Source of the DNA: Alphaproteobacteria bacterium | Lineage (GTDB): Bacteria > Pseudomonadota > Alphaproteobacteria > UBA11136 | Reading direction: 5' to 3' | Length of the DNA: 64,000 bases | Assembly (NCBI GenBank): GCA_016776635.1 | Contig: JADHSZ010000004.1 | Span: 16,777 to 80,776 of the forward strand | Part shown: positions 11,417 to 45,683 of the stretch, piece by piece | Layout of the letters: each line of letters opens with the position of its first letter | Position numbering within the stretch: the first letter of the stretch is position 1 | Translations under genes and position numbers: made by a program | Notes under the pieces: generated by a model | Databases searched by the model: none | The model's input: the letters and a program-made list of their open reading frames with translations, nothing else | Told to the model about the DNA's origin: nothing

Positions 11417-11484
11417 GGAAAGTATTTTTCGGCGGTTGCTCCCGCCCCTTTCCTATCCGCCAGCCGCGCTATACTGCCCCCATG
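11417..11484 (+). promoter_or_regulatory. Hairpin-promoter module, copy 2
   Basis: GGGAAAGTATTTTTCGGCGGTTGCTCCCGCCCCTTTCCT...CGCGCTATACTGCCCCCATG is about 85% identical to copy 1. The ATG at 11482 starts the GNAT gene. Confidence 0.45.
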
Positions 11485-12459: not shown

Positions 12460-12495
12460 CGGCGTCACCTTAAACGCCGCCTGAGTGAACTCCGC

Positions 12496-12768
12496 CTACT
12501 CGCCGCCTTCACCGCCCGCCGAATCCGAAGAGTCTCCGCCATCCCCAGACTCGTCCGACGGCTCCAGTTTAAGCAGCGTGATAGCCACGAAGATGGCGAG
12601 GCTCACTCCGCCCCAGAGGAAAAACCCCGCCATGTCCCCGGCGGCGGCATATTGCAGATAGAGCGCCACCACGATACCCGCGAAGACCAGCGTCAACAGC
12701 CAGCCCATGAAGCTGACGGGACGCACGCCCCAACCGATACGTTTTTTGCCGAACCAATAGTCTGACAT
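12496..12768 (-). CDS. Small membrane protein with acidic Gly/Asp/Ser-rich C-terminal tail; last gene of the precursor/radical-SAM operon (possible immunity or accessory protein)
   Basis: Start MSDYWFGKK preceded by AAGGGGGAG. Two transmembrane helices, tail ESGDGGDSSDSAGGEGGE. The same ORF extends to 12915 in the six-frame track. Confidence 0.45.
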   Translation of the reverse strand: MSDYWFGKKRIGWGVRPVSFMGWLLTLVFAGIVVALYLQYAAAGDMAGFFLWGGVSLAIFVAITLLKLEPSDESGDGGDSSDSAGGEGGE

Positions 12769-12802
12769 CTTGCTCCCCCTTGTTCCCTTGTTTTGTCTCC
12801 GC

Positions 12803-14275
12803 TCAGCCGGCGGAAGCGGCCCCTTCGCGTCCCGGATCATCCTCGAGAAGGCCGTTATCGTAAAGGCTCTGCAGGCTCTGTCCCACCAGGAAGATATCCT
12901 CACCGTTTGAGACAAGCTCGCCGATCACATCGCTGGCGGTCATGCGGTTTTCGTGGATGAGGCGGCCCATGCGGCCCATATAGGATATGCCGTTACAACT
13001 GTATTTCATGCCTCCGCCCTGCAGCTCGAAGCCCTCGTCCAGGGCCGAAAATTCCAGATCGTGGCGGAAGGAAACAACCTCGCTCGCCGGCACGCTTTCG
13101 GGCATGAACACGTCGATCATATCCTCCACCGCGGCGCGGAATTCCGCCACCGTCGTAAAGCGCGCCTCGGCGTAGATGCGATAGCCCAGCGGCCAGCGCG
13201 GCGAGGCCCGGGTCGGCGCCACCAGCTGTACCAGCCCCGAGAGCATATTGACCAAAAAGCCGCTGACGCAGGCGATGGTGGTGTGATCGCTCTGGAGTTT
13301 GGAAATCTTGCCTTCCTTGCCCGCGGCCACCAGCTTCTCGCGGCGTTCCTCGGCGCGGCCCGCCTTGGCCTTGGACATGAGCGCGTCCTTGCCCTGCATC
13401 ACCAACTCCACCCCCATCATTTCCTCGGGCGTAAAGGTGTCATACACGCGGTCGAGAATCTTGGTACTGAGGATGGAGAAACGCTGGGTGATGCAACAGT
13501 ATTTTTCATGCAGGGCCATGACTTTGCGCGTGAGGTCCAGGTTCTTCAACGGCGCCGCCGTGGTGGTCTGGGGCAGATGCCCGGTGACGCGGTAATGGTC
13601 CTCGATGAATTTGGGATAGTCGGGATTGTCCGCCGGGTCGGTGGCCCAATAGCAAAACCCGGTCTGGGCGGCATCACCAAACAGGTCCACCATCACCTGC
13701 AGCACGCCCCGCCACAGGGCCGCGTTTTCCGGGGTGTAAGGGTAATTGCCCTGGAACTTTTCCGCCGAGATGCCACAGAACCAACAGCCCACCGAACAGC
13801 CCTGGCTCAGCTCATAGGCGGCCACGGGGTGGACGATGGCCTCCGCGCTCACCCCCAGCTCGCTGGCCGAACGGCGGATCTGACGCTCGCGCCAGGCGTG
13901 AAAACGGGGGTTGGTTTTCTCGGTGCTGCCGGAATCGCGGATCAGGTCACGGTTGGCGATCATCTCCGCCAGATAGTCGTCCCAAGCCTGGGCCTTGGGC
14001 CATCGCGACATTTCATCGGTGAAGCGGTGTTTGGTGTGTTTGGTGTTCCACATGGGCTGCAGATCCTCGGGATCCACATCGATACCGTATTCCTCCGTCA
14101 CAACGGACGGATTCTTTACGTGCTCGCCCAGCTTGGCGCGAAACGTCGCGTCTGCCGAGAGCCGCTCCATGAACCGTTTCACATGGGCCAGCTCGCGCAG
14201 CTCTTCTTCACTGCGCGAGCTAAAGATGCGCTGATACTGTTTTGCCGAATCGCTTGGCTGATGCTGATACTTCAT
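12803..14275 (-). CDS. Radical SAM-like peptide maturase candidate (CSVGCWFCG = CX3CX2C) with an N-terminal Nif11-like domain
   Basis: 490 aa, immediately downstream of the three Nif11-leader precursors on the same strand. Cys triad with an aromatic residue before the third Cys. Residues about 20-75 (RELAHVKRFMERLSADATFRAKLGEH...VTEEYGIDVDPEDL) resemble a Nif11 fold. Confidence 0.6.
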   Translation of the reverse strand: MKYQHQPSDSAKQYQRIFSSRSEEELRELAHVKRFMERLSADATFRAKLGEHVKNPSVVTEEYGIDVDPEDLQPMWNTKHTKHRFTDEMSRWPKAQAWDDYLAEMIANRDLIRDSGSTEKTNPRFHAWRERQIRRSASELGVSAEAIVHPVAAYELSQGCSVGCWFCGISAEKFQGNYPYTPENAALWRGVLQVMVDLFGDAAQTGFCYWATDPADNPDYPKFIEDHYRVTGHLPQTTTAAPLKNLDLTRKVMALHEKYCCITQRFSILSTKILDRVYDTFTPEEMMGVELVMQGKDALMSKAKAGRAEERREKLVAAGKEGKISKLQSDHTTIACVSGFLVNMLSGLVQLVAPTRASPRWPLGYRIYAEARFTTVAEFRAAVEDMIDVFMPESVPASEVVSFRHDLEFSALDEGFELQGGGMKYSCNGISYMGRMGRLIHENRMTASDVIGELVSNGEDIFLVGQSLQSLYDNGLLEDDPGREGAASAG

Positions 14276-14305
14276 GGGCCCGTCATATTCCTCAGGTGGC
14301 GACCC

Positions 14306-14701
14306 TTACGTGAGGACAACGGCACCCTCGGCGACGACGGCCACCGTGGTCGCCACTTCGGCCGCCTCCGCAGCCGTGGTTGCCACTTCCGCGGCTTCGG
14401 CGGCCGTGGTGGCTGCCGCCACAGCCTCGACGGCCTGGGTGGCCACAGCGACCTTGGTGGTCACGGCCACGCTGTGGTGACCCTTGCCGCCGGCGATGCT
14501 GTCCAGCTGGTCGTCGGAAAGCTCTTGCTTGGTCTGTTCCCGGACATAGGCCTTGGCCTCGTCGATGGAAATGTCATAGCCCTTGGCGGCGGCGAACTCC
14601 ACCACCGAGGCGAGCCCGGTGGAGCCGGATTTAAGCTCCCCCAACAGCTCCGCGTTGGATTTCAGATCGGATACGAAACGCTCGATATCTGCCTGACTCA
14701 T
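14306..14701 (-). CDS. RiPP precursor peptide 1: Nif11-type leader with Gly-Gly site, Cys-free Ala/Val/Thr/Glu-rich core
   Basis: Leader MSQADIERFVSDLKSNAELLGELKSGSTGLASVVEFAAAKGYDISIDEAKAY..LSDDQLDSIAGG. Core KGHHSVAVTTKVAVATQAVEAVAAATTAAEAAEVATTAAEAAEVATTVAVVAEGAVVLT. Confidence 0.8.
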   Translation of the reverse strand: MSQADIERFVSDLKSNAELLGELKSGSTGLASVVEFAAAKGYDISIDEAKAYVREQTKQELSDDQLDSIAGGKGHHSVAVTTKVAVATQAVEAVAAATTAAEAAEVATTAAEAAEVATTVAVVAEGAVVLT

Positions 14702-14748
14702 GGTGCTGTCTCCCTCTTTAAAAAATTTCCCGGTAACCCTTATGATCC

Positions 14749-15150
14749 CTACGTAGCGACAACAGCCAACGCGGCCTCAGCCACCACCTCCACCGTGGTC
14801 GCCACATCGGCGGCCTCCACGGTAACGGTTACGGCCTCGGCCGCCGCCGCCGCAGTGGATGCCGCAAAGGCCGCCTCTACCGCGGCCACGGCGACCTTGG
14901 TGCCCATGCTGTGATGATGGTGATGATGGCCCTTGCCGCCGGCGATGCTGTCCAGCTGGTCGTCGGAAAGCTCTTGCTTGGTCTGTTCCTGGATATAGGC
15001 CTTGGCTTCGTCGATGGAAATGTCATAGCCCTTGGCGGCGGCGAATTCCACCACCGAGGCGAGCCCGGTGGAGCTGTCCTTAAGCTCACCCAACAGTTCC
15101 TCGTTGGATTTTAGATCGGCGACGAAGCGTTCCACATCGGCTTGGCTCAT
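14749..15150 (-). CDS. RiPP precursor peptide 2: Nif11-type leader, core starts KGHHHHHH
   Basis: GG at residues 71-72. Core KGHHHHHHSMGTKVAVAAVEAAFAASTAAAAAEAVTVTVEAADVATTVEVVAEAALAVVAT. The leader is about 90% identical to precursor 1. Confidence 0.8.
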   Translation of the reverse strand: MSQADVERFVADLKSNEELLGELKDSSTGLASVVEFAAAKGYDISIDEAKAYIQEQTKQELSDDQLDSIAGGKGHHHHHHSMGTKVAVAAVEAAFAASTAAAAAEAVTVTVEAADVATTVEVVAEAALAVVAT

Positions 15151-15263
15151 GGTGCAATTCCCCTTTTCACATCTTCACAGGAATCCGCCGCCACACCCCC
15201 CATCCCCATCAGGTGGAAACGGCAGCCGCAACGGCGGAACAATCGGAGCAGCGAAGGCGAGCC

Positions 15264-15623
15264 TCAGGTGGCGACGATGACGCCCTCGGCCGCGACGGCC
15301 ACGGTGGTGGCCACTTCGGCGGCTTCCTCGGCCACAGTGGCGACGGTGGTGGCGTTAACGGCGGTTTGATTCGAACTCACATTGGTGGCGTGATGATGAT
15401 GGCCCTTGCCGCCGGCGATACCGTCCAGCTGGTCGTCGGAAAGTTCCTGCTTGGCCTGTTCCTGGATATAGGCCTTGGCCTCGTCGATGGAAATGTCATA
15501 GCCCTTGCCACCGGCGAATTCCACCACCGAAGCCAGCCCGGTGGAGCCGGATTTGAGTTCATCCATCATCCCCGTGTCGGAATTAAGATCGGACACGAAG
15601 CGCTCGATATCTGCCTGGCTCAT
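15264..15623 (-). CDS. RiPP precursor peptide 3: Nif11-type leader, core KGHHHHATNVSSNQTAVNATTVATVAEEAAEVATTVAVAAEGVIVAT
   Basis: Same leader family, ending GIAGG. Shorter core ending IVAT. Confidence 0.8.
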   Translation of the reverse strand: MSQADIERFVSDLNSDTGMMDELKSGSTGLASVVEFAGGKGYDISIDEAKAYIQEQAKQELSDDQLDGIAGGKGHHHHATNVSSNQTAVNATTVATVAEEAAEVATTVAVAAEGVIVAT

Positions 15624-15783
15624 AGAATTATCCCCCCTGTAAGGAATGTGAATAATAATCTTTTTACGTTAGGGGGGGCATCTTCCCCCCTGTTTTTAGC
15701 CTGAGTCAACGTTTATCCTTGCGCGCAGCTCCCTGTCATAGGATTCATTTCAGGTTGTCCCTTCAGCCGGTTCCGCCCATAGT

Positions 15784-17250
15784 GTGCCCTTCGGGGGATT
15801 CAGTAGATTTCGGCCAGTCTCAGCGGATTGCGGGGGAATGTTGTTTCAACGGTTCTTAGTAAGTGTGGGCGCCGGTCTTACCGGGCTGCTGCTGGGAACG
15901 GGCGGTTCCCAGGCGCAGACCCTGGCCGAGGCGCTGACCCAGACCTATCACAATAATCCGGCCATCGCCGCGGCGCGGGCCACGCTTCGCTCCACGGTGG
16001 AAACCCTGCCCGAGGCGCGGGCTGACTTCCTGCCCACCATCTCCTTCGCAGCCAAGGAGGGCCGCACCCGCATACGCCAATCCACCAAGGACGAGTTCGC
16101 CACCACCAACACCGCCTCGCGACTGGTGGAAACCGCCACAGACCGTTCCATTGCGCTGGATGTAACCCTCAACCTCTATGACGGCGGCCAGGTGATCGCC
16201 GCCATCAACAAGGCCGAGGCCAATATCGCGGTGGAAAAATACACCCTCGAAAGCACCGAACAGTCGACTCTGCTTTCGGCGGCCGAAGCCTATGCCGATG
16301 TAATCCTGAAGGAACACCTTCTCGATCTTTCCATCGAAAACGAGAACGACCTCCTGAAGCTCAAAGCCTCCGTGGACGATCTCTACGCCCACCAACAGGT
16401 CACCATCACCGATGTGGCCCAGGTGGACGCCAAGCTCGCCTCCGCCAGGGCGGACAGGGCCCAGGCCCGGGGCAGCCTCCGCGCGGCGCGGGGCCAGTTC
16501 AAATACGTCATCGGCACCGTACCTGCCGGCCTTGAAAAAGAGCCCACCCTGCCGAACCCGCCCCCCACCCTGGAAGAAGCCCTGGCCATCGCCGAAAAGA
16601 GGAGTCCTTCCATTCTCGCCGCCCAATACCAGATCAAGGCCGACGAATTCGATGTCCGCGCCAGAGAGGGAAAACTGCTTCCCAGCGTGGATTTCTATAA
16701 TGACCTGACCCGTGAATGGGACAGCTCCACCTACACTGGCAGCTCCGACTACAAGGAGCACAGCAAGGAGGACAGCTGGGAAATCGGCGTCGATGTCACG
16801 GTGCCCCTCTATAACGGCGGCGCCTACTATGCCGACATCCGCGAGGCCAAACAGACCGTGGCCTATGACAGGAACACCCTGATCGATACCCGCAACCAGA
16901 TCATCGAAGACGTGACCTCGGACTGGGCCACCCTCGAAGCCGACCACGCCAGCCTCAAAAGCAGCGAGGAACAGGTGAAGTCCGCCACCATCGCCGTCAA
17001 GGGATTCGAGCGCCAGTTCAAGAGCGGCACCAGCACCATGCAGGAATTGTTGAACGCCCAGAGCTCGCTCATCAGCGCCTACGAAGCCCAGTACGAAGCC
17101 GTCAACGACGTCTTCACTTCCACCGCGACCCTGCTCAACCATATGGGAACCTTTGGCGCCCGCGAACTGGGCCTGGCCGGTGAATTCTACAATCCCGACG
17201 CCTATCTGGAAAAATCACGCTACAGGTTTTACGGCACCGATATCGACTAA
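15784..17250 (+). CDS. TolC-family outer membrane efflux protein
   Basis: Signal peptide (probable start MLFQRF at 15838). Two repeats of the outer-membrane-efflux-protein helix/strand pattern. Divergent from the precursor operon. Confidence 0.8.
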   Translation: MPFGGFSRFRPVSADCGGMLFQRFLVSVGAGLTGLLLGTGGSQAQTLAEALTQTYHNNPAIAAARATLRSTVETLPEARADFLPTISFAAKEGRTRIRQSTKDEFATTNTASRLVETATDRSIALDVTLNLYDGGQVIAAINKAEANIAVEKYTLESTEQSTLLSAAEAYADVILKEHLLDLSIENENDLLKLKASVDDLYAHQQVTITDVAQVDAKLASARADRAQARGSLRAARGQFKYVIGTVPAGLEKEPTLPNPPPTLEEALAIAEKRSPSILAAQYQIKADEFDVRAREGKLLPSVDFYNDLTREWDSSTYTGSSDYKEHSKEDSWEIGVDVTVPLYNGGAYYADIREAKQTVAYDRNTLIDTRNQIIEDVTSDWATLEADHASLKSSEEQVKSATIAVKGFERQFKSGTSTMQELLNAQSSLISAYEAQYEAVNDVFTSTATLLNHMGTFGARELGLAGEFYNPDAYLEKSRYRFYGTDID

Positions 17251-17317
17251 GGGTGCCGCCAAGCCGGCACCTACCCGGTTCTCAGAACCACTTGAAAACA
17301 ACCATGAGGGGGAGGCC

Positions 17318-19309
17318 ATGGATGTATGTCTGGTAAATATGCCCATTGCCGCCGTGCAACGGCCTTCCCTGGCGCTGGGGCTGCTCGGCGCGATGCTGAA
17401 ACGGGACGGCATTTCAACCAAGATTCTCTATCCCGACCTGTGGTTCGCCGAGTATTTCGGCCTGCGTTTCTATCGCAAGCTCTATCATACCCGGCCCGAG
17501 GACCTGCTCGCCGAATGGCTGTTCGCGGGCACCGCCTTCCCCGATTTTGAGCCCGACCACGACCGCTTCTTCGAGCGTCTGTTCGCGCGCAATGAAAAAA
17601 TATGCCACGAGGAAGGCCCTGAAGCCTTCAAGGCGATGATGCTGGAAAGCCGGGAAAAGGTGCCCGATTTCATCGACTGGGTGATCCGGGAAATACTCGC
17701 CCTCAGCCCCCGCATCGTCGGCTGCACCTCCATGTTCCAACAGCACGTGGCGACGCTGGCCCTGTTCCGCCGCCTCCGCGAAAGTGACCCCTCGGTGGTC
17801 ACCATGATGGGCGGACCCAATTGCGAGACGGTGATGGGCAAGACCACGCACCAGTCCTTTCCCTGGGTCGATTATCTGGTATCCGGCGAGGCCGATGCCT
17901 TCATCGCGCCGCTATGCCGTGAAATTCTCGATAAAGGACACGGGGCCGACCCCAGCCACCTCTCCGACGGCATCTTCACCCCGGCCCACCGCGAAACCGG
18001 CTATCCCGTCTCCGCCCATTCCCTTGACGGCCTGCCACGGGCCACCTCGGCCTCGCTGGGGGACCTGCCGCCGCCTGACTATGACGACTATTTTGAGGAG
18101 CTTTCCGGCAGCCTCTTCAAGAACTGGATCACACCCAATCTTCTGATTGAGGCCTCGCGGGGATGCTGGTGGGGGGAGAAACACCATTGCACCTTTTGCG
18201 GGCTCAACGGCGAGGGCATGGTCTACCGCTCGAAAACGGCCGATCAGGTGCATGAGGAAATCGACACCCTGGCGCGAAAATACAAGGTCACCAATTTCGA
18301 GGCCGTGGATAATATCCTGCGGATGGATTATTTCACCACCTTGCTGCCCCGTCTCGAAGACTTGCCCGAGGACTATCTTTTTTTCTTCGAGACCAAATCG
18401 AACCTCAAGCGCACACAGATCCAGCAATTACGGCGTTCCGGCGCGCGCTATATCCAGCCCGGCATCGAAAGCCTGGACAGCCGCGTCCTGAAACTCATAG
18501 ATAAGGGCGCCCAAGCCTGGCAGAACGTCCAGCTCTTGAAAAACTGCCGCCAAAACGGCATCTGGGTGTCTTGGAGCATGATCGTCGGCTTCCCCGGGGA
18601 GGAAGACGAATGGTACGCGAAGATGGCCGAGTTCATCCCTCTGCTGGCCCATCTCCAGCCCGGCGGCTTCATCGGCCTGCGTTACGATCGCTTCAGCCCC
18701 TACGTCAACGACCCGGAGGCCTTCGGTCTCGAACTCGCCCCATCGGAGCTCTACCCTTACGTCTATCCCCTGACGCAGGAAAAGATCGCCGACCAGGCTT
18801 ATTTCTTCGTCGAAAAGAACAAGCCCAACTTTTTCACCACCCTTGTTCAGACGCCCATACCCGGCCATCCCGGAATCGAGGCCGCCCGCGACGCCTTCCG
18901 CAAATGGCGCAGGGAATGGCCCGGCCCTGAACTCTGCGCCCGCGAGGTGGGGGGGGAGATTCATCTGCGCGACACCCGCCCCTGTGCGGTAACGGAACAG
19001 CACCGCATCACCGGAACCGACCGCCTAGCGCTGGAGGCCTGCGACACCGCCCCCACACAGGCCCGGCTTATGGAAACACTCGCGCAGGACGCTACCCCAC
19101 AAGACATCACCGACGCCCTGGCCCGGCTCATAGCCAATAAATTTATTTTCGAACTCGATGGCCGCCTGATCTCGCTGGTATTGAATGAGCCCATGGAATC
19201 CATGCCTTCCGACAGACTCCCGACCTTTGGCGCGGTGATGGCGCCGCAAGCCGCCCCACGGGATGACCCGAACGAGGATAACGAGGACCAGTCCCGAAAG
19301 GTGGCGTGA
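17318..19309 (+). CDS. B12-binding-domain radical SAM enzyme (RiPP maturation radical-SAM C-methyltransferase-like)
   Basis: Start MDVCLVNMPIAAVQRP after a GAGGGGGAGG RBS. N-terminal cobalamin-binding-like domain, Cys cluster RGCWWGEKHHCTFCG (CX7CX2C), long C-terminal extension. Confidence 0.7.
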   Translation: MDVCLVNMPIAAVQRPSLALGLLGAMLKRDGISTKILYPDLWFAEYFGLRFYRKLYHTRPEDLLAEWLFAGTAFPDFEPDHDRFFERLFARNEKICHEEGPEAFKAMMLESREKVPDFIDWVIREILALSPRIVGCTSMFQQHVATLALFRRLRESDPSVVTMMGGPNCETVMGKTTHQSFPWVDYLVSGEADAFIAPLCREILDKGHGADPSHLSDGIFTPAHRETGYPVSAHSLDGLPRATSASLGDLPPPDYDDYFEELSGSLFKNWITPNLLIEASRGCWWGEKHHCTFCGLNGEGMVYRSKTADQVHEEIDTLARKYKVTNFEAVDNILRMDYFTTLLPRLEDLPEDYLFFFETKSNLKRTQIQQLRRSGARYIQPGIESLDSRVLKLIDKGAQAWQNVQLLKNCRQNGIWVSWSMIVGFPGEEDEWYAKMAEFIPLLAHLQPGGFIGLRYDRFSPYVNDPEAFGLELAPSELYPYVYPLTQEKIADQAYFFVEKNKPNFFTTLVQTPIPGHPGIEAARDAFRKWRREWPGPELCAREVGGEIHLRDTRPCAVTEQHRITGTDRLALEACDTAPTQARLMETLAQDATPQDITDALARLIANKFIFELDGRLISLVLNEPMESMPSDRLPTFGAVMAPQAAPRDDPNEDNEDQSRKVA

Positions 19310-19315
19310 CCGGCA

Positions 19316-22026: not shown

Positions 22027-22075
22027 CTGCCCTTCCTCTGTTTCGCCGGAACATTCCCGGTGTGGGGACTCCGCC

Positions 22076-25000
22076 TCAGGCCACCTGACGCAGCGCCATC
22101 TCGGAGAAATAACCGCCCTGATCCATCAGTTGCTGATAATTCCCGGCCTCGATGACCCGGCCCTTGTCGATCACATAGATCATGTCGGCGTCGATGATGG
22201 TGCTGAGCCTGTGGGCGATGACAATGCGGGTGCTGTTGAGGGTATTGAGTCCCTGGCGCACGATTTCCTGGGTCTCGTTGTCGAGAGCGCTGGTGGCTTC
22301 GTCGAAAATGAGAATACGCGGCCGATGCACCACCGCGCGGGCGATCATCAAACGCTGGCGCTGACCGCCGGAAAGGGTCGAGGCCCCTTCGCCGAGATAG
22401 GTCTCCATGCCCATGGGCATGGCCTCGATATCCTTGTCGAGTCCAGCCAGCCGCGCCGCTTCCCAGGCATCGTCATGGGAAAGATTGGCGCCGGCGGTAA
22501 TATTGTGGAACACCGAGCCCGACAACAGGCGACCGTTTTGCAGAACCACACCGAAATTGTGGCGCATGGCCCGCTTATCGAGATTGGAAATTTCCTTGTC
22601 GTCAAGAAACACCGAGCCCGCTTCGGGCTCATCGAAGCCAAGGATCAACCGCACCACCGAAGACTTACCCGCCCCCGACGGCCCCACCAGGGCCACGAAC
22701 TGGCCGGGCTTGGCCTCGAAGGTCATGCCGTCGAGAACCAGGGGGCTGTCCTCCTCGTAGCGGAACTGCACATCATGGATCGCCAGCCCCCCCAACACCT
22801 CGCCCGGATCCTCGGAGCCTTCCTCGCTTTCCTGCTTCGCCTCCAGGATCGGCGCCACCCGCTCGTAGAGGGGCTTGATGTTGACAAGCTGGATCAGAAC
22901 GCCGGTGATGCCGAAGACGGCGCCAAGGAACTGCCCAAAGGCCACGTGGAAGGAAACAAATTTCGCGACGGGCATTACCTTTTGCAGCTTTCCGCCGGTG
23001 ATGTCGGCCCAGTCGGTGGGCGCGTGGTAAAACGCCAGCAGCTCATGCCCCTGCCAACCGATGATGAAAATGATCCCGAACACGGCGAAGTAACTAAAGC
23101 CCGACTTGAACACGATGAGCGCGTTGTTCAGGTTCTGCATATAAAAGCTGGTGGACTGGAGTTGGGCATAGGGCATGGCCCATTGGGCAAACGCATTGGG
23201 TTCGCTTCCGGTCACCCGCAGCTTGGACACCGCGCCCAGCAATTGCATGACAATTCCCTGAATCCGTCCGCCCAGGAACAGCATCTCGCGGCTGCGCGAC
23301 AGCACCTTACGGCCAAGGACGTAGGTAATGACGCTGTAAATGGCGCAGATAATCACGGTAATGCCCGCCAGCCGCCAGTTGTAATAGGTCATGAGGCCAA
23401 GACTGAAGAGCCCCACCACGCCGTGCATGAGCGACGTCACCACCGATCCCGACAACAGGCTGCGCATGGCATCCACACCCTGGGCGCGGTTCGCCAGATC
23501 ACCCACCGTATAATCACGGAAGAACGAGGCCGGCAGTTTCAACAGCCGGTCCCATACCGCCGCCTGCACGTCATGGGTCATTCTGCCCTCGATGCGCAGC
23601 ATGGAAAGCGACTGCACCAGCGAGAAGGCCACCATGGAAAATCCGGCAAGAATCAAGGCGCCCACCATGACGGTGAGTTGATCCAACTGCGCCTCGGGAA
23701 TTATGGGGTCCATGATCCAGCCGATGATAATGGGCGTGGCCAGCGATAAAAGACCGGCCACCAGGATCATGGCCACCACCAGGCCCACATCCCGGCCACT
23801 GCCGCGCAGACCAAACATGAGAATATCCGAAGGACGCATCTTTCCGGGCTGGAAGGGACGGTAGAAATAATAAGCGGATTCCGAGAGGGTGGCAGCCAGT
23901 TCGCGTGTCACCTTTGTTCTGGTCCCCGCCACGGGGTCCACAAGTTCGTATTCCCGCGCCGAGACCGGCAACAGGGCGCAGGGTTTCTTGTCCTCGCCGA
24001 CAAAGGCGAGAATAGGCCCCTGGTCCACCCGCCACCATTCCCCTTCCAAAATCACGGTGCGAATAAAGAAACCGGACTGGCGGGCAAGAATCTTCAAGGG
24101 GTCCTTGGCCTTGGCGAGGGGTTGGCTCAATTTCTCCGGCGGCGCCACTTCGATCCCCGCCCTATGGGCCACCGTCTGCGCGGCGGCCACAAGAGGGTCC
24201 GAGGACAGGTCCAGAACCCCCTCCGATCCGGATTCTAGAACCCCGGCCAGCGCCCGCAGGGAACCCGTGAAGCTGCGTTTGGAAAAGATGCGCTTTTGGA
24301 CAAAACGGCTGGCGAAGGATTTTGAGCGGTCCTCAACGGTCTTGGCGAAAACACCGAGGACGCCCGTATGGAGGCAATCCAGATCGCCCATGAGGTTGCC
24401 CTTGCCCAGCCACTGTTCCGTGATGCACGCCTCGAAGCTGCCCTCACCGTCACAGGTCATCCAGGAAGCATTGGTGAGCGGATAAAAGACCTCGCCGTCG
24501 CCGCTCACTGGGCATTTTCCGAATAACGAGAGAGTCCCAGCCGGCGCCGCGACCCAAACCATATTATGGGCGGCCTCGATGCTGGCCCCGGCGGGAACCG
24601 GGGTGGTGGTGTCCGCTGACAACAGAACGGCGTTACCCGGTGGCCGCCCTGGCGCCACACCCTGTAACAGCGGGCCGATCCAGCTTTCCACAAGGGCGGC
24701 TATCTGCGGCTTGGCTTTTTTATCTCCTGCCAGTCCCCGCAGATCATGGCGGGTAGTCTCGGCCAATCTTGCGCCATTGGTGGGTACCGCCACGAGACTA
24801 CCCGGGGTGGAGGTGTCACCAATCCCGAAGACCGCGCCCCCGGCCTCGATCCGCGTTACATGAGTGCGAATGCCGTGAATCCCCTGCGAGGCTTCGGTGG
24901 GACCGTCAACCACATAGAACACGTCCACGCCACCCTGGAGAATCAGCCACAGGCGGTCCGGCCTGGAGAGAAGAAAGGGCGTATTGCTGCCCATGGCCTT

Positions 25001-25147
25001 GGCTTCTCCTTCCACGCCAAGTTTCCCGGCCAGGCCCGCCGCCGGCTCGGCGTTGACGGGTTCCGACTGCGGCTGCGGCTGCGGAGCTTTCGAGGCCGCC
25101 GCCTGCGCCAGCCCGCCCTTGCCAAAAAGATCGTCGAGACCGCTCAT
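22076..25147 (-). CDS. NHLP/Nif11-type bacteriocin export ABC transporter, permease/ATPase subunit (no peptidase domain)
   Basis: 1023 aa. Roughly 470-aa N-terminal soluble region, 6-TM ABC exporter domain, Walker A GPSGAGKS, LSGGQRQR signature, Walker B ILIFDEATSALD. Confidence 0.8.
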   Translation of the reverse strand: MSGLDDLFGKGGLAQAAASKAPQPQPQSEPVNAEPAAGLAGKLGVEGEAKAMGSNTPFLLSRPDRLWLILQGGVDVFYVVDGPTEASQGIHGIRTHVTRIEAGGAVFGIGDTSTPGSLVAVPTNGARLAETTRHDLRGLAGDKKAKPQIAALVESWIGPLLQGVAPGRPPGNAVLLSADTTTPVPAGASIEAAHNMVWVAAPAGTLSLFGKCPVSGDGEVFYPLTNASWMTCDGEGSFEACITEQWLGKGNLMGDLDCLHTGVLGVFAKTVEDRSKSFASRFVQKRIFSKRSFTGSLRALAGVLESGSEGVLDLSSDPLVAAAQTVAHRAGIEVAPPEKLSQPLAKAKDPLKILARQSGFFIRTVILEGEWWRVDQGPILAFVGEDKKPCALLPVSAREYELVDPVAGTRTKVTRELAATLSESAYYFYRPFQPGKMRPSDILMFGLRGSGRDVGLVVAMILVAGLLSLATPIIIGWIMDPIIPEAQLDQLTVMVGALILAGFSMVAFSLVQSLSMLRIEGRMTHDVQAAVWDRLLKLPASFFRDYTVGDLANRAQGVDAMRSLLSGSVVTSLMHGVVGLFSLGLMTYYNWRLAGITVIICAIYSVITYVLGRKVLSRSREMLFLGGRIQGIVMQLLGAVSKLRVTGSEPNAFAQWAMPYAQLQSTSFYMQNLNNALIVFKSGFSYFAVFGIIFIIGWQGHELLAFYHAPTDWADITGGKLQKVMPVAKFVSFHVAFGQFLGAVFGITGVLIQLVNIKPLYERVAPILEAKQESEEGSEDPGEVLGGLAIHDVQFRYEEDSPLVLDGMTFEAKPGQFVALVGPSGAGKSSVVRLILGFDEPEAGSVFLDDKEISNLDKRAMRHNFGVVLQNGRLLSGSVFHNITAGANLSHDDAWEAARLAGLDKDIEAMPMGMETYLGEGASTLSGGQRQRLMIARAVVHRPRILIFDEATSALDNETQEIVRQGLNTLNSTRIVIAHRLSTIIDADMIYVIDKGRVIEAGNYQQLMDQGGYFSEMALRQVA

Positions 25148-27375
25148 TGCATCGCCACCAGTTCTGAATAGCGGCCCTTATTGGCCATCAGCTGATCGTG
25201 GTTCCCGCGCTCGATAATCTTGCCCTGCTCGAGGACGATGATCTCGTCACAGTCGCGGATGGTGCTGAGCCTGTGGGCAACGATGATGCAGGTGCATCCC
25301 CGCCGCCGCAGATTATCGTCGATATGTTTCTCGGTCAGCGGGTCAAGGGCCGAGGTGGCTTCATCAAGAACCAGCACCGACGGCTCCTGAGCCAGGGCGC
25401 GGGCGATTTCAAGCCGCTGTGACTGGCCGCCGCTGAAATTGGCGTTACCTTCGGCGACCCGGCTTTCATAGCCCCCGGCGCGCGAAGCGATGATCTGATG
25501 CACATCGGCATCCATGGCCGCGCGCACGATGATCTCGTTGGGAATGGTGCTGTCCCACATGGTCAGGTTTTCGCGGATAGTGCCCTCGAACAGAAAAATC
25601 TCCTGGTCCACCGCCCCTACCGATGACGTGAAAACGGCGCGAGGCACCTTATTGATAGGCTGCCCGTCGTAAAGGACCTCGCCGCCCGTGGGCTGATAAA
25701 GCCCGAGAATAAGCCTGGAAAGGGTGCTTTTTCCGCTGCCCGACCCTCCCACCAGGGCCACGCGCTGGCCGGGTGCCACATCCAGATTAAAATCTTCGAT
25801 CAACGGAGGGTCCAACGGGTTATATCCGAAGCTCACATCACGCAGTTGCAGCGCGCCGGAAAGTCTGGCGATGGGCGTCTTTTCCCCCTCGCCGTTTTCG
25901 GGAGCCTCGTCATCGGCATCTTCGTCACCGTCATCGCTCTGAAATACGCTGTCCAGTTCGTATCTTTGCACATCGCTCAGCCGGTTGAGGTCGCCGCCAA
26001 TTTCCTGCAGCTGCGATCCGAAGCCCACGAACTGGTGAATGGGTCCGGTGAAATGGACCATCAGGCTCTGGAACGCAATCAGCCCGCCAATGGTGAGCTC
26101 GCCGCCGACGATCAACAAGCCGCCGACGCCGAGAATCAGCCCCGTATTGAGGTGGTTGAGCGCGCCGGGAACGCTGGAGAGCTTCTGCATGGTGACGCCC
26201 AGCTGTTGTTGGGCGTTGATGCCGTTGGTCTGGTAGCCGGACCAGATATTAAAGAAATCACTTTCGGTGCCGGTGGCTTTCAGGGTTTCAATGGCCTGCA
26301 GCCCCGCCATGGAGGCCCCCACCGTCTTGGCCTGCTGGTTGAGAAGATGGCTGTTGGTGTCCTTGATCCGGCGCCGCACCACACCCACCGCCAACAGGTC
26401 GAAGCAGGCCAGCCCCACGGCGATCAGCGTCAGGGGGACGCTGTAGATAGCCATCACGGTGAGGTAAAAGACGATCATCAGGCTGTTGGCGAGCGTGCTC
26501 GACAGCGGCCCCGATAACAGCGCCGCCACGCGATGACAGGACTGCACCCGCGAGGCCACGTCGCCCACGTAACGCTGGGTATAGAACACCACCGGCACCC
26601 GCAGCACATGCCAGAAGAACTGGCCGGCGGAAGATATGGCGAGCTTGATCTGGACCCGCAGCAAATAGCGTTGCTGAAGATAGGTCAGCACCGAACTGAA
26701 TATAGCCGTTAAGGCCAGCCCCACCAGGATCGGCAACAGCCAGTCGTTATCGCCCCGGGTCAGCACATTATCGATGAAGTTCTTAAGGAAGGCCGGCATC
26801 AACAGCCCCGGCACCACCAGCATCAGCGTCACCAGAACCACAAATGCCAGTACTCCCTGGGAACCGTGCAACCGCGAGGCCAGGGCCTTGAACAGGCTTT
26901 GCCGCTCACCGCCTTTCTGGAAATCCGGACCCGGCTCCATTTCCAGCATGATCCCGGTAAAGCCGTCGCTGAATTCCTGGCGGGTGATGCGGCGCGGCCC
27001 GGAGGCCGGGTCATTAACACACACATGCGTCTTGTCGGCGCCTTCCACCACCAGGAAGTGATTGAAATTCCAGAAAACGATAAAAGGAGTCTGGCTGGCC
27101 AGGGCCTCATCGGCTTCGGCCTTGGACCCCTTGGCGTCGAGGCCATAACCGCGGGCCGCCTTGACCACGTTGCCGGCCTTGGCCCCGTCGCGGGAGACGC
27201 CAGTGGCCACGCGCAGCTCTTCCAGCGGCACCCAGCGCCCGTAATAGGCCAACATAATGGCCAGCGCCGCAGCACCGCACTCCACGGCCTCCATCTGCAG
27301 GACCGTGGGCGTGTGCACCCGTTTCATGGGGCCGGACCAGGCCGCCTTCTCCCCTGTCTTCCCCCCTGGCGCCAC
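25144..27375 (-). CDS. NHLP/Nif11-type bacteriocin export ABC transporter with N-terminal C39 peptidase domain (Gly-Gly leader cleaving)
   Basis: 743 aa. C39 motif QMEAVECGAAALAIMLAYYG, transmembrane domain, Walker A GGSGSGKST, LSGGQSQR, LVLDEATSALD. Overlaps the upstream ABC gene by 4 nt. Confidence 0.85.
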   Translation of the reverse strand: MAPGGKTGEKAAWSGPMKRVHTPTVLQMEAVECGAAALAIMLAYYGRWVPLEELRVATGVSRDGAKAGNVVKAARGYGLDAKGSKAEADEALASQTPFIVFWNFNHFLVVEGADKTHVCVNDPASGPRRITRQEFSDGFTGIMLEMEPGPDFQKGGERQSLFKALASRLHGSQGVLAFVVLVTLMLVVPGLLMPAFLKNFIDNVLTRGDNDWLLPILVGLALTAIFSSVLTYLQQRYLLRVQIKLAISSAGQFFWHVLRVPVVFYTQRYVGDVASRVQSCHRVAALLSGPLSSTLANSLMIVFYLTVMAIYSVPLTLIAVGLACFDLLAVGVVRRRIKDTNSHLLNQQAKTVGASMAGLQAIETLKATGTESDFFNIWSGYQTNGINAQQQLGVTMQKLSSVPGALNHLNTGLILGVGGLLIVGGELTIGGLIAFQSLMVHFTGPIHQFVGFGSQLQEIGGDLNRLSDVQRYELDSVFQSDDGDEDADDEAPENGEGEKTPIARLSGALQLRDVSFGYNPLDPPLIEDFNLDVAPGQRVALVGGSGSGKSTLSRLILGLYQPTGGEVLYDGQPINKVPRAVFTSSVGAVDQEIFLFEGTIRENLTMWDSTIPNEIIVRAAMDADVHQIIASRAGGYESRVAEGNANFSGGQSQRLEIARALAQEPSVLVLDEATSALDPLTEKHIDDNLRRRGCTCIIVAHRLSTIRDCDEIIVLEQGKIIERGNHDQLMANKGRYSELVAMQ

Positions 27376-27378
27376 CGG

Positions 27379-28632
27379 TCAGCCTCCCGTGACCCAGGTC
27401 TTGAATATGGGAACCACAAGATTTATGGGACGTTCCTCGCGCACCGTCACCGAGGCAAAGGCCGTATCGCCGGTGGTAACCTTCAGAGGCGGACCCTTGG
27501 AAGACGACCATTTAAGCCCGCTGAAGGTCTTGGGATCCTTCTTCAGCGAGATCACCACCTTGATGGGGGCCCCGGCGCCCATCATTTTCTCCACCAGCGC
27601 CTCGTTACCCAAAACCGCCATCAGCCCGGCCTGGGTTTCCGGCAGGTCGCTCACCGTATCCACCTTGCCCCTGATGCTGCCGTAAAGGTCACGCTCTATG
27701 GAGGAGGGCGCCACCTCGGCGGACATGCCGGGATGGATTTTCTTGCCCTTGCCGATCTCAAAATAGGTGACCAGCTCCAAGTCTTTGCCGGACTTCTCGA
27801 TGACGGCCACTTGGCCATCGGTCTTCACAAGCGCGCCGAGCTTGACGTCGATCTCGGTGACGCGGCCGTCCACGGGGCTGAAGATTTCCTTTTCCGTCTC
27901 CAGGGAGGTCTTGACCTCCTCAAGACTGTTTTCGGCGGTGATGACCTGTTGTTCCAGTTCGGACAGGGTGCGGCGCTGTTGGTTCTCGAATTCCACCTGG
28001 GCGGAGCGCGCCTCGGCGATTTTGTTGCGGCTGTCGCGGATGGACTGTTCGGTGGCAAAGATATCGCTGCGCGTCTGCTCCAGCTGTTTGCGGGTGATAT
28101 ATCCTTTTGCCAGCTCCTCCTGCTGGGCTTCGTAGAGCGGCTGCAGGAAATCCAGGTGATTCTTATCGGCCGTGATCTTGGCATTGAGGGCTGTGATGGT
28201 ATCCCGCATATTGGCCTTGCGGCTGCTCACATCCTTCACCGAGAACGCCGACTGGCGGTCATACTGGCCCTGCAAATTATTCAGGGTGCGGTGGGCATCC
28301 CGCAGCTGGGCCTCGCGGCTGGGCAGGGACAACACCGCGAGGCGGGCGCCCTTCTTCACCATCTGGCCCACCTTCACGTCGACTGAATCGATACGCCCGG
28401 CGGCGGGCGCAATCACACTGTAGACGACCCCGCCACGGTCGAGAATAACACCCATGCCCTTGACCTGGACCGGCACGCTCCCCACCACGCCCCAGACGGT
28501 GACGATAGCAACGATGACGAACATCACGGTAAGGCTGAGCCAGCCAATGGGTGAGGTAAGCCTGAGCGCCGTATCCAGCTGCTCCGGACTGCGGAGCTTC
28601 CTGATCGCTTCGTCGCGGAAAAGGTCCGACAT
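27379..28632 (-). CDS. HlyD-family secretion (membrane fusion) protein of the NHLP export system
   Basis: 417 aa. N-terminal transmembrane anchor, long coiled coil, beta-barrel/lipoyl-like domains. Confidence 0.8.
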   Translation of the reverse strand: MSDLFRDEAIRKLRSPEQLDTALRLTSPIGWLSLTVMFVIVAIVTVWGVVGSVPVQVKGMGVILDRGGVVYSVIAPAAGRIDSVDVKVGQMVKKGARLAVLSLPSREAQLRDAHRTLNNLQGQYDRQSAFSVKDVSSRKANMRDTITALNAKITADKNHLDFLQPLYEAQQEELAKGYITRKQLEQTRSDIFATEQSIRDSRNKIAEARSAQVEFENQQRRTLSELEQQVITAENSLEEVKTSLETEKEIFSPVDGRVTEIDVKLGALVKTDGQVAVIEKSGKDLELVTYFEIGKGKKIHPGMSAEVAPSSIERDLYGSIRGKVDTVSDLPETQAGLMAVLGNEALVEKMMGAGAPIKVVISLKKDPKTFSGLKWSSSKGPPLKVTTGDTAFASVTVREERPINLVVPIFKTWVTGG

Positions 28633-28765
28633 CTCTCCCCCCTGTGGGCCTCCTTAATTACCTCACTCTGAAGGCCTGACCGGGCATCCTACAATCTTGT
28701 GTGCCACAGGGAAACGGGGAGGTGTATTCCGCCTTCCCGCGCCACAGAGGATTATCAGGCTGCCG

Positions 28766-29929
28766 TCAGGGGATTTCCTTGCCGTCGGGTCCGTACCATC
28801 CCTTGTAGATTTCGCCACAGCCATAATAGTCGATATTGGGCGGCACGTAATCAGCCCCTTCATCATCCCGGTGAAGAAGGCGGAGTTCGAAACTGATGCG
28901 AGTGGTGTCGCCGCTATGAACGGCACTGGCGTGAAGATGGTGGGTAGCAAAACAGAACACGTCTCCCACCTCCAGGGGCGGGGCCACCACGCGGTCCCGG
29001 TTCACCGTCTCGCGGATGGCGGGCGCCAGCCCCAGCCCCACATATTGCCGCCAGATATCGTAGCCGAGCGTAGCGTTTTCGATGCTTTTGAGGTAGTAGC
29101 GGGGAAACACCTGCAGCGTGGCATCGGCGGCAATGGGCCAGACCGGCCCCCATAAATTGATCTGGTGCTGGGGCGAGCCGTACCAGGTGTCGCGGTGGGC
29201 CGGCAGAAAGCCCGAAACGGTGGTTCGATAAAACCCCGGCGCTGGGCTTCCCTCGGGAAAGACCAGTCGGAATCCCGGCCATTCATAGATCACCCGCGCC
29301 GGATCCATTCCCATCTGCTCCACGAGGGTGGTCATAATGGGATGAATTCGCTCGTCTTCAAGAAACGCCTCATAGGTTTCCTTCACGATCCGGGTATAGG
29401 TTTCGAGGTCCAGCTTGCCGTGGGCCTCGCGGGGGGCATGGGGATAGAAAGCGCGGACCAGAACCTCCCGGATTACCGCCACCAGGTCAGCAATGGCGGG
29501 AACCTGGCGTGCCGCAATGCTCTCGCCCTCCAGGATTCCCCGTCGGTCCAGCGTAAAGCCGTCCTCGTAATCCAGAACCTGCCCTCCCGCGGCGCAGTCC
29601 CGGTCCATGGGCACCGGCATCGGGATATCGCCGCGGTCCCGGCGTTCCAAAAGCTCCCGGCGATGGCGCAGATCGCGCTCGCTGAGATCGTTCTCGATTT
29701 TCCGTTCCAGATAGTCGCTCAACTCGGCGCCGGTGAAATGAAAGCCATGGGCGTTGGCGAAGGCGGCGATGGCATCGGTGGCATTGGGGGAAAAGTCAAT
29801 CTGGGACAATTCATCCATGAGGGTAGGCGTGGTCATGACAGCGCCAGTAAAGGACTCGATGCTCCCCCTGCTGATCCAGGCCAGAAAGTCCCGGCCCTGT
29901 TCAAGGTCGTTTGCATTGGTTGATTCCAT
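28766..29929 (-). CDS. Nif11-like N-terminal domain fused to a putative Fe(II)/2-oxoglutarate-dependent oxygenase-like (PhyH/cupin-like) domain
   Basis: N-terminus DFLAWISRG..TLMDEL..PNATDAIAAFANAHGFHFTGAELSDY matches the Nif11 pattern. C-terminal half carries an HxD...H arrangement (LPAHRDTWYG ... CFATHHLHASAVH). Confidence 0.45.
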   Translation of the reverse strand: MESTNANDLEQGRDFLAWISRGSIESFTGAVMTTPTLMDELSQIDFSPNATDAIAAFANAHGFHFTGAELSDYLERKIENDLSERDLRHRRELLERRDRGDIPMPVPMDRDCAAGGQVLDYEDGFTLDRRGILEGESIAARQVPAIADLVAVIREVLVRAFYPHAPREAHGKLDLETYTRIVKETYEAFLEDERIHPIMTTLVEQMGMDPARVIYEWPGFRLVFPEGSPAPGFYRTTVSGFLPAHRDTWYGSPQHQINLWGPVWPIAADATLQVFPRYYLKSIENATLGYDIWRQYVGLGLAPAIRETVNRDRVVAPPLEVGDVFCFATHHLHASAVHSGDTTRISFELRLLHRDDEGADYVPPNIDYYGCGEIYKGWYGPDGKEIP

Positions 29930-33836: not shown

Positions 33837-33971
33837 TAGCGGTAATGTGCGGAAAAGATTGGCGTCCCCTAGGGGAGGGGATGTCAAAACCATAAAAACC
33901 GCAGAAAACTGCGATTCTCTCCGAAGCTCCATAAGCAATTGCTACGGAATTGCTACAGTATGGAGCCACCA

Positions 33972-35603: not shown

Positions 35604-35708
35604 CATATTGATATTTTTTCTGGTTTGGAGGGAGGCCTTTTTTGGCCATCTATTCCTTCAGACCCACAGTTCGATAAACCAAAATTGATTTTTCAAAATG
35701 GATAACAA

Positions 35709-37037: not shown

Positions 37038-37340
37038 TTTCAATATATTAAGATTATTTATGTAAAAACCAAGTAAACCTTGATGCCCTACATTATATAA
37101 TACATACCCTGTTACTAGAACATTTTTTACTTATTAAGTGTTTCACCAGTGTTTATAAGCATCATCAGAATAGAGATTTGTCGTATTGCAAATACGATTT
37201 TCCTAGGAAAACTTGGGTTATCAGGCCTACCCTTTTTAAAGGAAAAAGTATGATCTAAGACCAGATAATACGGTTATGACATGGGAACAGTCATGCTCCA
37301 ATGGCGCAGCAATAATCGTAAATTCTGAGGGATAATAATT

Positions 37341-37928: not shown

Positions 37929-38242
37929 CAAACCAAGCATTAGGAAAGAATAGACCCATAAAATGCCTCCAGGATGCCCCCAGATTGATGGCATCTATTC
38001 TTATGGGGCATAGCAGTCTAGGCCTTCTGATGCGAGTCCTCGGCGCTCTGACAGCGATGCGCCCCTATTCAAGGTCAGAGCTAGGACATATCTATATCTG
38101 CTGTTGACCATAAGCGAACATTGAGGGCGGTTTGAGTAGCCCTTAACAAGATTTTCACCTCAAAGAACTTGCCTTTATTTCTGGATAAATCATCCGAAAT
38201 CCGTCTTAAAATGAACCGCCGGTAAGACGAGGAGGAAAATCA

Positions 38243-39526: not shown

Positions 39527-39545
39527 GGAAGTTCATTGAAAACCG

Positions 39546-45681: not shown

Positions 45682-45683
45682 AT

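Follow-up and report, generated by a model that had tools for sequence, protein, structure and literature searches.

A likely Nif11-leader RiPP gene cluster that joins a PoyD-type epimerase and a B12 C-methyltransferase to a Cys-type MetX-like enzyme in an uncultured marine alphaproteobacterium

Radical S-adenosylmethionine (SAM) epimerases and C-methyltransferases mature some of the most potent and most extensively modified ribosomal peptides, such as the polytheonamides, the aeronamides and landornamide, and few families of these peptides have been characterised. PoyD epimerases carry a CX3CX2C motif plus a single further conserved Cys, Cys372 in PoyD, which is the hydrogen-atom donor, and PoyC is the precedent for a B12 enzyme that methylates unactivated carbons such as Val C-beta (PMC8326336). 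In the selidamides, a GNAT acyltransferase acts on a Lys or Orn that occupies core position 1-2, an acylation that hydroxylation improves (PMC8784127); in phaeornamide the hydroxylase acts first, on the residue that the GNAT later acylates (PMC8784127, PMC13647313). Here we describe a locus encoding a ribosomally made peptide modified after translation (RiPP) that combines features of both groups. It lies in a window of 64,000 nucleotides, the whole stretch of DNA that was analysed, from an alphaproteobacterial assembly (GCA_016776635.1, contig JADHSZ010000004.1, positions 16,777 to 80,776). An earlier reading of the letters alone, referred to below as the initial annotation, had drawn attention to the locus.

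Inspection of open reading frames (ORFs) and genes yielded a coherent set of 14 genes at 11482-29929 (Table 1), in a window that contains numerous spurious ORFs because its GC content is high. We consider it likely that this set is an intact RiPP biosynthetic gene cluster (BGC) of an uncultured marine Rhodospirillaceae-like alphaproteobacterium. The 490-aa protein matched TIGR04517 (rSAM_PoyD) over the full length of the model with 530 bits (cut-off 325), and its only invariant Cys residues are C160, C164 and C167, spaced as CX3CX2C, and one other, C336, the arrangement described for PoyD. The 664-aa protein scored 705.8 bits against TIGR03975 (cut-off 281.85), so that the locus has the B12 radical-SAM C-methyltransferase of polytheonamide-type channel formers; it also matched Pfam Radical_SAM with 67.9 bits and Pfam B12-binding with 22.3 bits, the latter below the gathering score. 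Both proteins had been read as radical-SAM enzymes in the initial annotation, and their curated profile scores back its suggestion of predicted epimerisation and C-methylation. The export genes listed there are likewise all present, each above its curated cut-off. ABC1 gave 1031.9 bits with TIGR03796 (cut-off 853.3) and 113.8 bits with Peptidase_C39, whose Gln...Cys (LQMEAVECG) and His motifs are recognisable in the sequence; ABC2 gave 837 bits with TIGR03797 (cut-off 709.4) over residues 317-1022, and the HlyD-type adaptor 296.2 bits with TIGR03794 (cut-off 156.2). These three make up the export set of NHLP/Nif11 bacteriocins. The TolC-family channel, for which a 470-aa gene model was taken from metagenome contigs, scored 256.8 bits with TIGR01844 (cut-off 225.15) and 192 bits with Pfam OEP.

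The three precursors stand in tandem and carry Nif11-type leaders, as was first noticed. A3, A2 and A1 scored 37.5, 37.1 and 36.5 bits against TIGR03798 (cut-off 32.3) and 31.4, 38.4 and 26.7 bits against Pfam Nif11 (gathering score 23.8). All three leaders are 72 aa long and end in ..IAGG, and the Gly-Gly junction together with the nearby C39-peptidase ABC exporter gives the locus both marks of a Nif11 RiPP. The initial annotation had made its reading depend on the radical-SAM and leader scores; all of them are above cut-off, and the observation is therefore confirmed. The cores, 47 aa (A1), 61 aa (A2) and 59 aa (A3) long, lack Cys and abound in Ala, Val, Thr and Glu: KGHHHHATNV...GVIVAT in A1, KGHHHHHHSMG...AVVAT in A2 and KGHHSVAV...AVVLT in A3. 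Within the window the paralogues share 79-90% identity in their leaders and just 44-64% in their cores. The lack of Cys excludes thiazoles and lanthionines, as had been argued, but on its own it does not exclude that the abundant Thr and Ser are converted to oxazoles or dehydro-amino acids; no enzyme for either chemistry was found within the cluster.

A search with A2 returned 103 homologous precursors, and all core statistics given here cover this set. Core position 1 is Lys in every one of them, position 2 is Gly in 96 and position 3 is His in 78. At the other end, 96 cores terminate in Thr after V-(V/I)-V-(L/A/V), and Val is third from the end in 98. Between 0 and 8 His residues occur among core residues 1-12, with none in 20 of the 103. 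This range, across homologues from many independent metagenomes, rules out that the His6 run is a cloning artefact.

The cluster is also conserved as a unit. The exact epimerase sequence occurs on 12 metagenome contigs, the longest of which, a 92-kb contig from the European Nucleotide Archive (ENA), has an identical gene order. Precursor homologues with a named source come from metagenome-assembled genomes (MAGs) of Alphaproteobacteria, Rhodospirillaceae or Proteobacteria, and a genome scan with the methyltransferase located the cluster in the Rhodospirillaceae MAGs ARS27, SI072_bin63 and SI074_bin10, as well as on a closed alphaproteobacterial chromosome of 3.9 Mb. In ARS27 all genes are syntenic at ~74-88% identity; in the loci L007, L008 and L010 the order is kept at 40-60% identity and the outer flanks differ. 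Overall, gene set and order are retained at 40-88% identity in at least six independent MAG loci, which argues for selection on the whole set. Its occurrence across Rhodospirillaceae and Alphaproteobacteria MAGs makes the cluster common in the clade, so that, with 103 precursor homologues and at least six syntenic loci, the initial annotation was mistaken in calling it unusual for a Rhodospirillaceae-like chromosome; a proteusin precursor from Rhodospirillaceae has in fact been published before (PMC11285071). We moved the left edge of the cluster to 11482, since synteny of the GNAT gene is kept. The previous start, 12496, is the end of the gene for a 90-aa membrane protein and not that of the epimerase gene, and two conserved genes, for the tandem GNAT and for the Cys-type MetX-like enzyme, had been omitted. 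A literature search found no described product, as had been supposed, and no published description of the architecture or of the core motif was found in the searchable literature, which is incomplete.

The 325-aa protein has a tandem GNAT fold and conserved synteny, as expected of a GNAT that belongs to a selidamide-like cluster, and the Lys that starts all 103 cores corresponds to the selidamide acceptor. Its homologues (n = 13) were found only in the BGC family whose cores begin K-G-H-H, and in every locus of that family the GNAT gene adjoins the epimerase gene. We propose that the GNAT N-acylates the invariant Lys1 of the core. The oxygenase carries at residues 20-89 a region homologous to the precursor leaders that spans essentially the whole leader (hhalign probability 97.2%, E 3.5e-11), in agreement with the Nif11::oxygenase fusion described initially. 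Its H245-x-D247, H333 and R344 are invariant in 32 homologues, and an AlphaFold2 (AF2) model with a mean confidence (pLDDT) of 91.5 retrieved SptF, AndA, PtlH and PHYHD1 in Foldseek at E 1e-9 to 1e-7; one homologue, P0127, matches Pfam PhyH with 27.4 bits. With a facial triad, an Arg for 2-oxoglutarate (2OG) binding and a jelly-roll fold, the protein is predicted to be a PhyH-like Fe(II)/2OG dioxygenase. GNAT and oxygenase occur only in loci with K-G-H-starting cores and are absent from L018, L020 and L025, where the cores are headless. The two enzymes thus track the Lys/His head.

The 529-aa protein is a SAM methyltransferase, as first annotated, but it is SxtA/AprA-MT1-like and not of the polytheonamide N-methyltransferase type. 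It matched PF23525 (273.6 bits), PF23526 (42.4 bits) and PF23589 (27.7 bits), with AprA_N, winged-helix and Methyltransf_36 domains, and a search of the PDB retrieved SxtA (7UCL/7UCI) at E 1e-61 over ~470 residues and AprA MT1 (6B39) at E 6e-59 over ~310 residues. AerE (7RC2-6) gave no match in this search at E<=1e-3. Since only SxtA and AprA-MT1 were returned, a PoyE/AerE-type N-methyltransferase could be ruled out. His249, Asp251, His379, His386, Glu447 and His449 are invariant in four cluster orthologues, and most of them are matched in SxtA. The methyltransferase (MT) domain of SxtA and AprA MT1 are iron-dependent C-methyltransferases of malonyl-acyl carrier protein (ACP) (PMC10784701).

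A pathway can be proposed for these enzymes. With the leader still attached, the epimerase would, like its family, turn L- into D-residues in a 1,3 pattern that runs from the C-terminus towards the N-terminus, with its single conserved Cys, C336, as the putative hydrogen-atom donor. The B12 enzyme, again by family, would methylate unactivated side-chain carbons, most likely Val C-beta. Co-occurrence suggests that the GNAT may acylate Lys1 by the selidamide logic (PMC8784127, PMC13647313) and that the dioxygenase may hydroxylate the N-terminal Lys/His region, docking through its leader-like domain. The C39 domain would then cut after Gly-Gly, and ABC1, ABC2, HlyD and TolC would export the product across both membranes. 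The expected products are secreted, partly D-configured and C-methylated. Lys-Gly-His-(His)n would form their head and a hydrophobic stretch closing in ...V-V-(L/A/V)-T their tail, and they are probably membrane-active.

Several observations weigh against this reading. We infer the D-residues, the methylation sites, the acylation and the hydroxylation alike from sequence. Glu makes up 7.5% of core residues, a poor fit to a simple membrane-spanning helix. The polar residues of the cores recur with periods of ~3.3 and ~6.6-7, with z-scores of up to 20 against shuffled sequences that are overstated because the sequences are related; no period-2 polar pattern was found in the 103 related precursors, so a beta-helix is not indicated by sequence alone. 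No ACP gene is encoded in the cluster, and L024 and L025 lack the SxtA-like methyltransferase, which is therefore not obligatory for the wider enzyme cassette to which these loci belong. The GNAT has no close named relatives in the homologue search and could be an immunity enzyme, and the invariant Lys1 might serve a protease requirement instead of acylation.

The last two points could be taken further, with the tandem GNAT as a self-resistance enzyme or an unrelated housekeeping acetyltransferase and Lys1 kept for cleavage or for the activity of the mature peptide. We regard this as unlikely. The 13 GNAT homologues are restricted to this BGC family and co-occur strictly with Lys-starting cores, the gene keeps its place beside the epimerase gene, at 41-47% identity, in loci whose outer flanks differ, and acylation by a GNAT at core position 1-2 has a precedent in Nif11/NHLP RiPPs (PMC8784127).

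The product could also be a plain proteusin of the polytheonamide/aeronamide type, that is, a beta-6.3-helical cation channel with D and L residues alternating throughout, built by the enzyme logic of poy/aer; the initial annotation had called the chemistry polytheonamide-like. That description holds for the two radical-SAM enzymes, the PoyD-family epimerase and the TIGR03975 C-methyltransferase, only. Core length (47-61 aa) is near the 48-49 residues of the polytheonamide core, the C-terminal tail is hydrophobic, and the weak polar periodicity near 6.6-7 residues would agree with such a helix. The leader, however, is of the Nif11 and not the NHLP type: neither curated-profile nor Pfam searches gave an NHase_alpha or NHLP match to the precursors, which places them outside proteusins in the strict sense. 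The cluster encodes no PoyE/AerE-type N-methyltransferase, its methyltransferase having matched only SxtA and AprA-MT1 in the PDB, and no dehydratase or PoyH-type protease. Over the 103 precursors the cores consist of 22% Ala, 22% Val, 18% Thr, 7.5% Glu and 1.8% Asn, the last to be set against the Asn ladders that define the channel formers (PMC9060474). This Glu content, the poly-His head and four conserved enzymes with no counterpart in poy or aer also speak against a plain proteusin, which we find distinctly improbable.

A different function was considered for the His-rich head. The amino-terminal Cu and Ni binding (ATCUN) motif consists of X-X-His at a free N-terminus, and a core released after Gly-Gly would begin NH2-Lys-Gly-His, followed by up to 8 His, so that the product could be primarily a secreted metallophore for Cu, Ni or Zn and not a membrane-active toxin. 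The presence of X-X-His at the new N-terminus in 78 of 103 cores, the 0-8 His in the first 12 residues and the export to the medium through TolC fit this idea. The 20 cores with no His in that region, the related cassettes L018, L020 and L025, which have no His head, and the long hydrophobic D/L tail, which metal binding does not explain, do not; the motif would moreover be destroyed if Lys1 were acylated on its alpha-amine. Metal acquisition as the primary role seems improbable to us.

The most unusual member of the set is a 388-aa protein that resembles the homoserine acyltransferase MetX. It passed the older PRK00175 model (395 bits against 331) and failed both current cut-offs, with 357 bits against 500 for TIGR01392.2 and 356 against 560 for NF047916. 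In an alignment with the solved MetX structures 2PL5, 3VVL and 2B61, the nucleophile motif GGSMGG has become GGCMGG, the GHD beside the catalytic His has become GHG (GHGAF), and HALTGD has become HGLTAT. Arg227, Tyr234 and Asp351 are listed as conserved substrate-tunnel residues of mycobacterial MetX (PMC6937278); their equivalents here are Ala, Trp and Gly. The Cys and the tunnel-residue changes are common to all orthologues (n = 10), one from an acidobacterial MAG included. Among 1.8 billion representative proteins searched, each of the ten top-scoring matches had the Cys, and the GH motif, located in seven of them, always read GH(G/A). Canonical Ser/Asp MetX proteins appeared only below ~307 bits, with a discrete Cys/Gly clade above. 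Three proteins (P0161, P0167 and P0168), which share no more than 50% identity with one another, join a TIGR03975 C-methyltransferase and a Cys-type MetX-like domain in a single full-length chain, and the Cys-type gene adjoins a PoyD-type epimerase gene in 13 of the 13 loci examined. The active-site changes, the discrete clade, the fusions and the epimerase adjacency argue that the MetX-like protein is a putative neofunctionalised RiPP maturase and not a homoserine acyltransferase of the methionine pathway. That it is instead an ordinary or duplicated homoserine O-acyltransferase, boosting methionine and SAM supply for the three SAM-consuming enzymes, as the PRK00175 score, the ~40% identity to solved MetX enzymes and the general existence of BGC-embedded supply genes might suggest, is highly improbable, since the equivalog cut-offs fail, the Ser-to-Cys and tunnel changes occur in every orthologue, Cys and Gly co-vary as the mark of a separate clade, and at least three representatives are fused to RiPP radical-SAM methyltransferases; active site, clade structure, fusions and synteny likewise ruled out a housekeeping MetX.

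For the MetX-like maturase we propose an acyl-transfer or esterase step carried out jointly with the C-methyltransferase. The enzyme may have kept the ping-pong acyl transfer of its relatives with a pocket opened for the peptide, and may work in physical contact with the C-methyltransferase; its Cys would form an acyl-thioester, from which the acyl group could be moved onto peptide Thr/Ser hydroxyls, or onto which it could be taken off them. The C-terminal Thr was considered as the obligatory site of the MetX-like enzyme or of the methyltransferase. This candidate is weakened by L020, where both enzymes are present yet the cores end in Gly or Ser. The SxtA-like methyltransferase may in turn C-methylate a malonyl-type acyl group held as the MetX-like thioester. 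In its fullest form, this idea has the MetX-like Cys take up an acyl group, malonyl or another, in a thioester that mimics malonyl-S-ACP, the SxtA-like enzyme C-methylate it, and the resulting branched acyl group pass to Thr or Ser. That would be a RiPP modification not yet known, and we put it forward tentatively, as a possibility on the doubtful side.

Relatives of the epimerase/MetX-like cassette with NHLP leaders occur in other phyla; the carriers of cassette relatives include Acidobacteriota and further relatives known from metagenomes. For example, L018 (Thermoanaerobaculia, ...TTTTVVAEAELVAT) and L025 (TARA, ...AEVVAVAVAVAT) have NHLP-leader precursors that share the core type of the cluster without its K-G-H head, and L020 combines short, Val-rich cores with a fusion of C-methyltransferase and MetX-like enzyme. 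From the gene content of these and other loci, the near-universal cassette is made up of the epimerase and the Cys-type MetX-like enzyme, to which a B12 C-methyltransferase is usually added and the SxtA-like methyltransferase often. Two further loci differ in layout. At L022 (JGI 3300063997, 10001-10348) an orphan precursor of this family stands among unrelated housekeeping genes, far from any maturases, like the dispersed prochlorosin precursors. At L023 (GCA_003574485.1, 738-9089) genes for a Methyltransf_36 methyltransferase, a PoyD-type epimerase and a Cys-type MetX-like enzyme directly follow one single nonribosomal peptide synthetase (NRPS) module with condensation, adenylation, peptidyl carrier protein and thioesterase domains (C-A-PCP-TE). 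No B12 radical-SAM gene and no Nif11/NHLP precursor were seen at this locus, which may be a hybrid of RiPP and NRPS or may put the cassette to another use.

Table 1. Genes of the cluster, with positions in the 64,000-nucleotide window
Feature	Position	Strand	Basis of assignment
Tandem-GNAT acyltransferase, 325 aa	11482..12459	+	
Small membrane protein, 90 aa	12496..12768	-	no family assigned
PoyD-family radical-SAM peptide epimerase, 490 aa	12803..14275	-	TIGR04517
Precursor A3, 131 aa	14306..14701	-	TIGR03798, Pfam Nif11
Precursor A2, 133 aa	14749..15150	-	TIGR03798, Pfam Nif11
Precursor A1, 119 aa	15264..15623	-	TIGR03798, Pfam Nif11
TolC-family outer-membrane channel	15784..17250 (likely start 15838, 470 aa)	+	TIGR01844, Pfam OEP
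B12-binding radical-SAM RiPP C-methyltransferase, 664 aa	17315..19309	+	TIGR03975
MetX-fold alpha/beta-hydrolase with Cys nucleophile, 388 aa	19316..20482	+	alignment to MetX structures
SxtA/AprA-MT1-type SAM methyltransferase, 529 aa	20437..22026	-	PF23525, PF23526, PF23589
NHLP-type exporter ABC2, 1023 aa	22076..25147	-	TIGR03797
NHLP-type exporter ABC1 with C39 leader peptidase domain	25144..27375	-	TIGR03796, Peptidase_C39
NHLP-system HlyD-type periplasmic adaptor, 417 aa	27379..28632	-	TIGR03794
Nif11-domain::PhyH-like Fe(II)/2-oxoglutarate dioxygenase (predicted), 387 aa	28766..29929	-	hhalign, AF2, Foldseek

The MetX-like gene starts 6 bp past the C-methyltransferase gene, and the SxtA-like methyltransferase gene is convergent with it and overlaps its end. 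The 90-aa protein has two predicted membrane helices and an acidic tail of Gly, Asp, Ser and Glu, and no family was found for it in curated-profile or Pfam searches. Its gene is also called on the metagenome contigs identical to the locus, and tblastn detected relatives in L012 (82% identity), in L008 (38%, beside the oxygenase) and in L024 (55% over the N-terminus). We regard it as a candidate immunity or accessory protein. The N-terminal extension of ABC2, ~316 residues long, lies outside TIGR03797 and has no Pfam match. A scan for promoters and terminators gave nothing informative.

Other features of the window lie apart from the cluster. At 9611-10432 there is a methyltransferase related to RquA of rhodoquinone biosynthesis (159 bits, cut-off 175), which is consistent with a Rhodospirillum-like lineage. 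Downstream of the cluster, a tyrosine integrase (DUF6538 and Phage_integrase, 33939-35603) marks the edge of a low-GC stretch (42-48%, against ~60% elsewhere) that encloses a trypsin-like/PDZ protease (38243-39526) and has a tRNA-Glu(CTC) (41049-41124) on its other side; 33939-41124 is probably an integrated genomic island. Beyond it, a SagB-family peptide dehydrogenase gene (43219-44607, TIGR03605, 138 bits) stands beside a 351-aa ORF of which only the C-terminal half matches YcaO/SagD (89 bits, cut-off 219), and 43219-45681 resembles the remnant of a second RiPP locus of the azoline type, probably a degraded one. A place for these SagB- and YcaO-like genes (43.2-45.7 kb) in the cluster was rejected as unproven: the integrase island and the tRNA lie in between, the YcaO is truncated, and the related loci show no such synteny. 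A segment of ~100 aa, ..WPATLPLP(S/T)I(E/D)GYGV(H/Y)PGEAI.RTEMEAGPARQRRR.., recurs in three minus-strand ORFs at 45.3-45.7, 46.2-46.5 and 47.2-47.5 kb (window 44626-47522), just upstream of phage tail genes, and one of its copies forms the N-terminus of the truncated YcaO ORF. The minus strand at 47990-62431 holds a block resembling a prophage or gene transfer agent (GTA), with a tape-measure protein, a 716-aa capsid fusion and a 1011-aa large terminase gpA, whose residues 299-353 are a LAGLIDADG_3 domain and may be an intein or a homing-endonuclease insertion.

The cluster represents an apparently undescribed family of ~100 precursors, found mostly in marine Rhodospirillaceae-like MAGs, and it brings together three types of enzyme for which no part in RiPP maturation is known: the Cys-type MetX-fold protein, the free-standing SxtA/AprA-MT1 homologue and the leader-carrying dioxygenase. 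The leader-like domain of the oxygenase lends itself to asking how a large, structured leader recruits or activates its maturases. If acyl modification, Lys1 acylation and a metal-binding head all proved true, the products would form a new RiPP class from abundant marine Alphaproteobacteria.

Comparison with the closest described systems brings out how the locus is composed. With poy and aer it shares the PoyD-family epimerase, the PoyB/PoyC-type B12 C-methyltransferase, a hydrophobic Val-rich core of ~50 residues and an Fe/2OG oxygenase. It differs in the Nif11 leader, in leader removal by a C39 ABC protein, in TolC export and in having at least three paralogous precursors; an Asn N-methyltransferase, a PoyF dehydratase and a PoyH protease are all missing, its cores contain hardly any Asn, and the Cys-type MetX-like enzyme, the SxtA-like methyltransferase and the tandem GNAT are additional to the poy/aer set. 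A PoyD homologue acting on precursors other than classical NHLP proteusins is also found with OspD (landornamide), PlpD and AvpD of cyanobacteria, whose products some authors call proteusins all the same (PMC8326336). Those products carry few epimerisations, come from another phylum and, in osp, involve an arginase and a lanthionine synthetase as partners; none of these systems has the set of C-methyltransferase, MetX-like enzyme and SxtA-like methyltransferase.

The selidamides (kamptornamide, phaeornamide and the nostolysamides) are similar in their NHLP/Nif11 precursors, Gly-Gly junction and use of a GNAT on Lys or Orn at position 1-2. However, they are small lanthipeptide macrocycles made with neither epimerase nor C-methyltransferase, and the hydroxylase PhaI belongs to PF08007 and is not PhyH-like; the cluster described here has no arginase, and the likeness of its GNAT is one of fold, synteny and Lys acceptor. 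Prochlorosin-type Nif11 systems likewise have several paralogous precursors whose leaders are conserved and whose cores diverge, orphan precursors and the TIGR03794/03796/03797 exporter, whereas the prochlorosins are lanthipeptides made by the single enzyme ProcM, and this cluster has no lanthionine synthetase and no Cys in its cores.

Two of the enzymes have their nearest described relatives outside the RiPPs. The methyltransferase shares the AprA_N, winged-helix and Methyltransf_36 domains with the SxtA MT and AprA MT1 of polyketide synthase (PKS) loading modules, but it stands alone, fused to none of GNAT, ACP or PKS parts, and is encoded in a RiPP cluster. MetX homoserine O-acetyl- and succinyltransferases share with the cluster enzyme the alpha/beta-hydrolase fold, the lid, ~40% identity and the catalytic His and Asp; the cluster enzyme is set apart by its Cys nucleophile, by GHG, HGLTAT and the Ala and Trp tunnel residues, and by being fused to or encoded beside RiPP radical-SAM enzymes. 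Judged by its genes, the locus resembles a proteusin pathway in two of its steps and falls outside both the strict definition of a proteusin, which requires an NHLP leader, and the polytheonamide-type definition, which requires Asn N-methylation. It mixes proteusin, selidamide and prochlorosin-type Nif11 traits with enzymes that lack a RiPP precedent.

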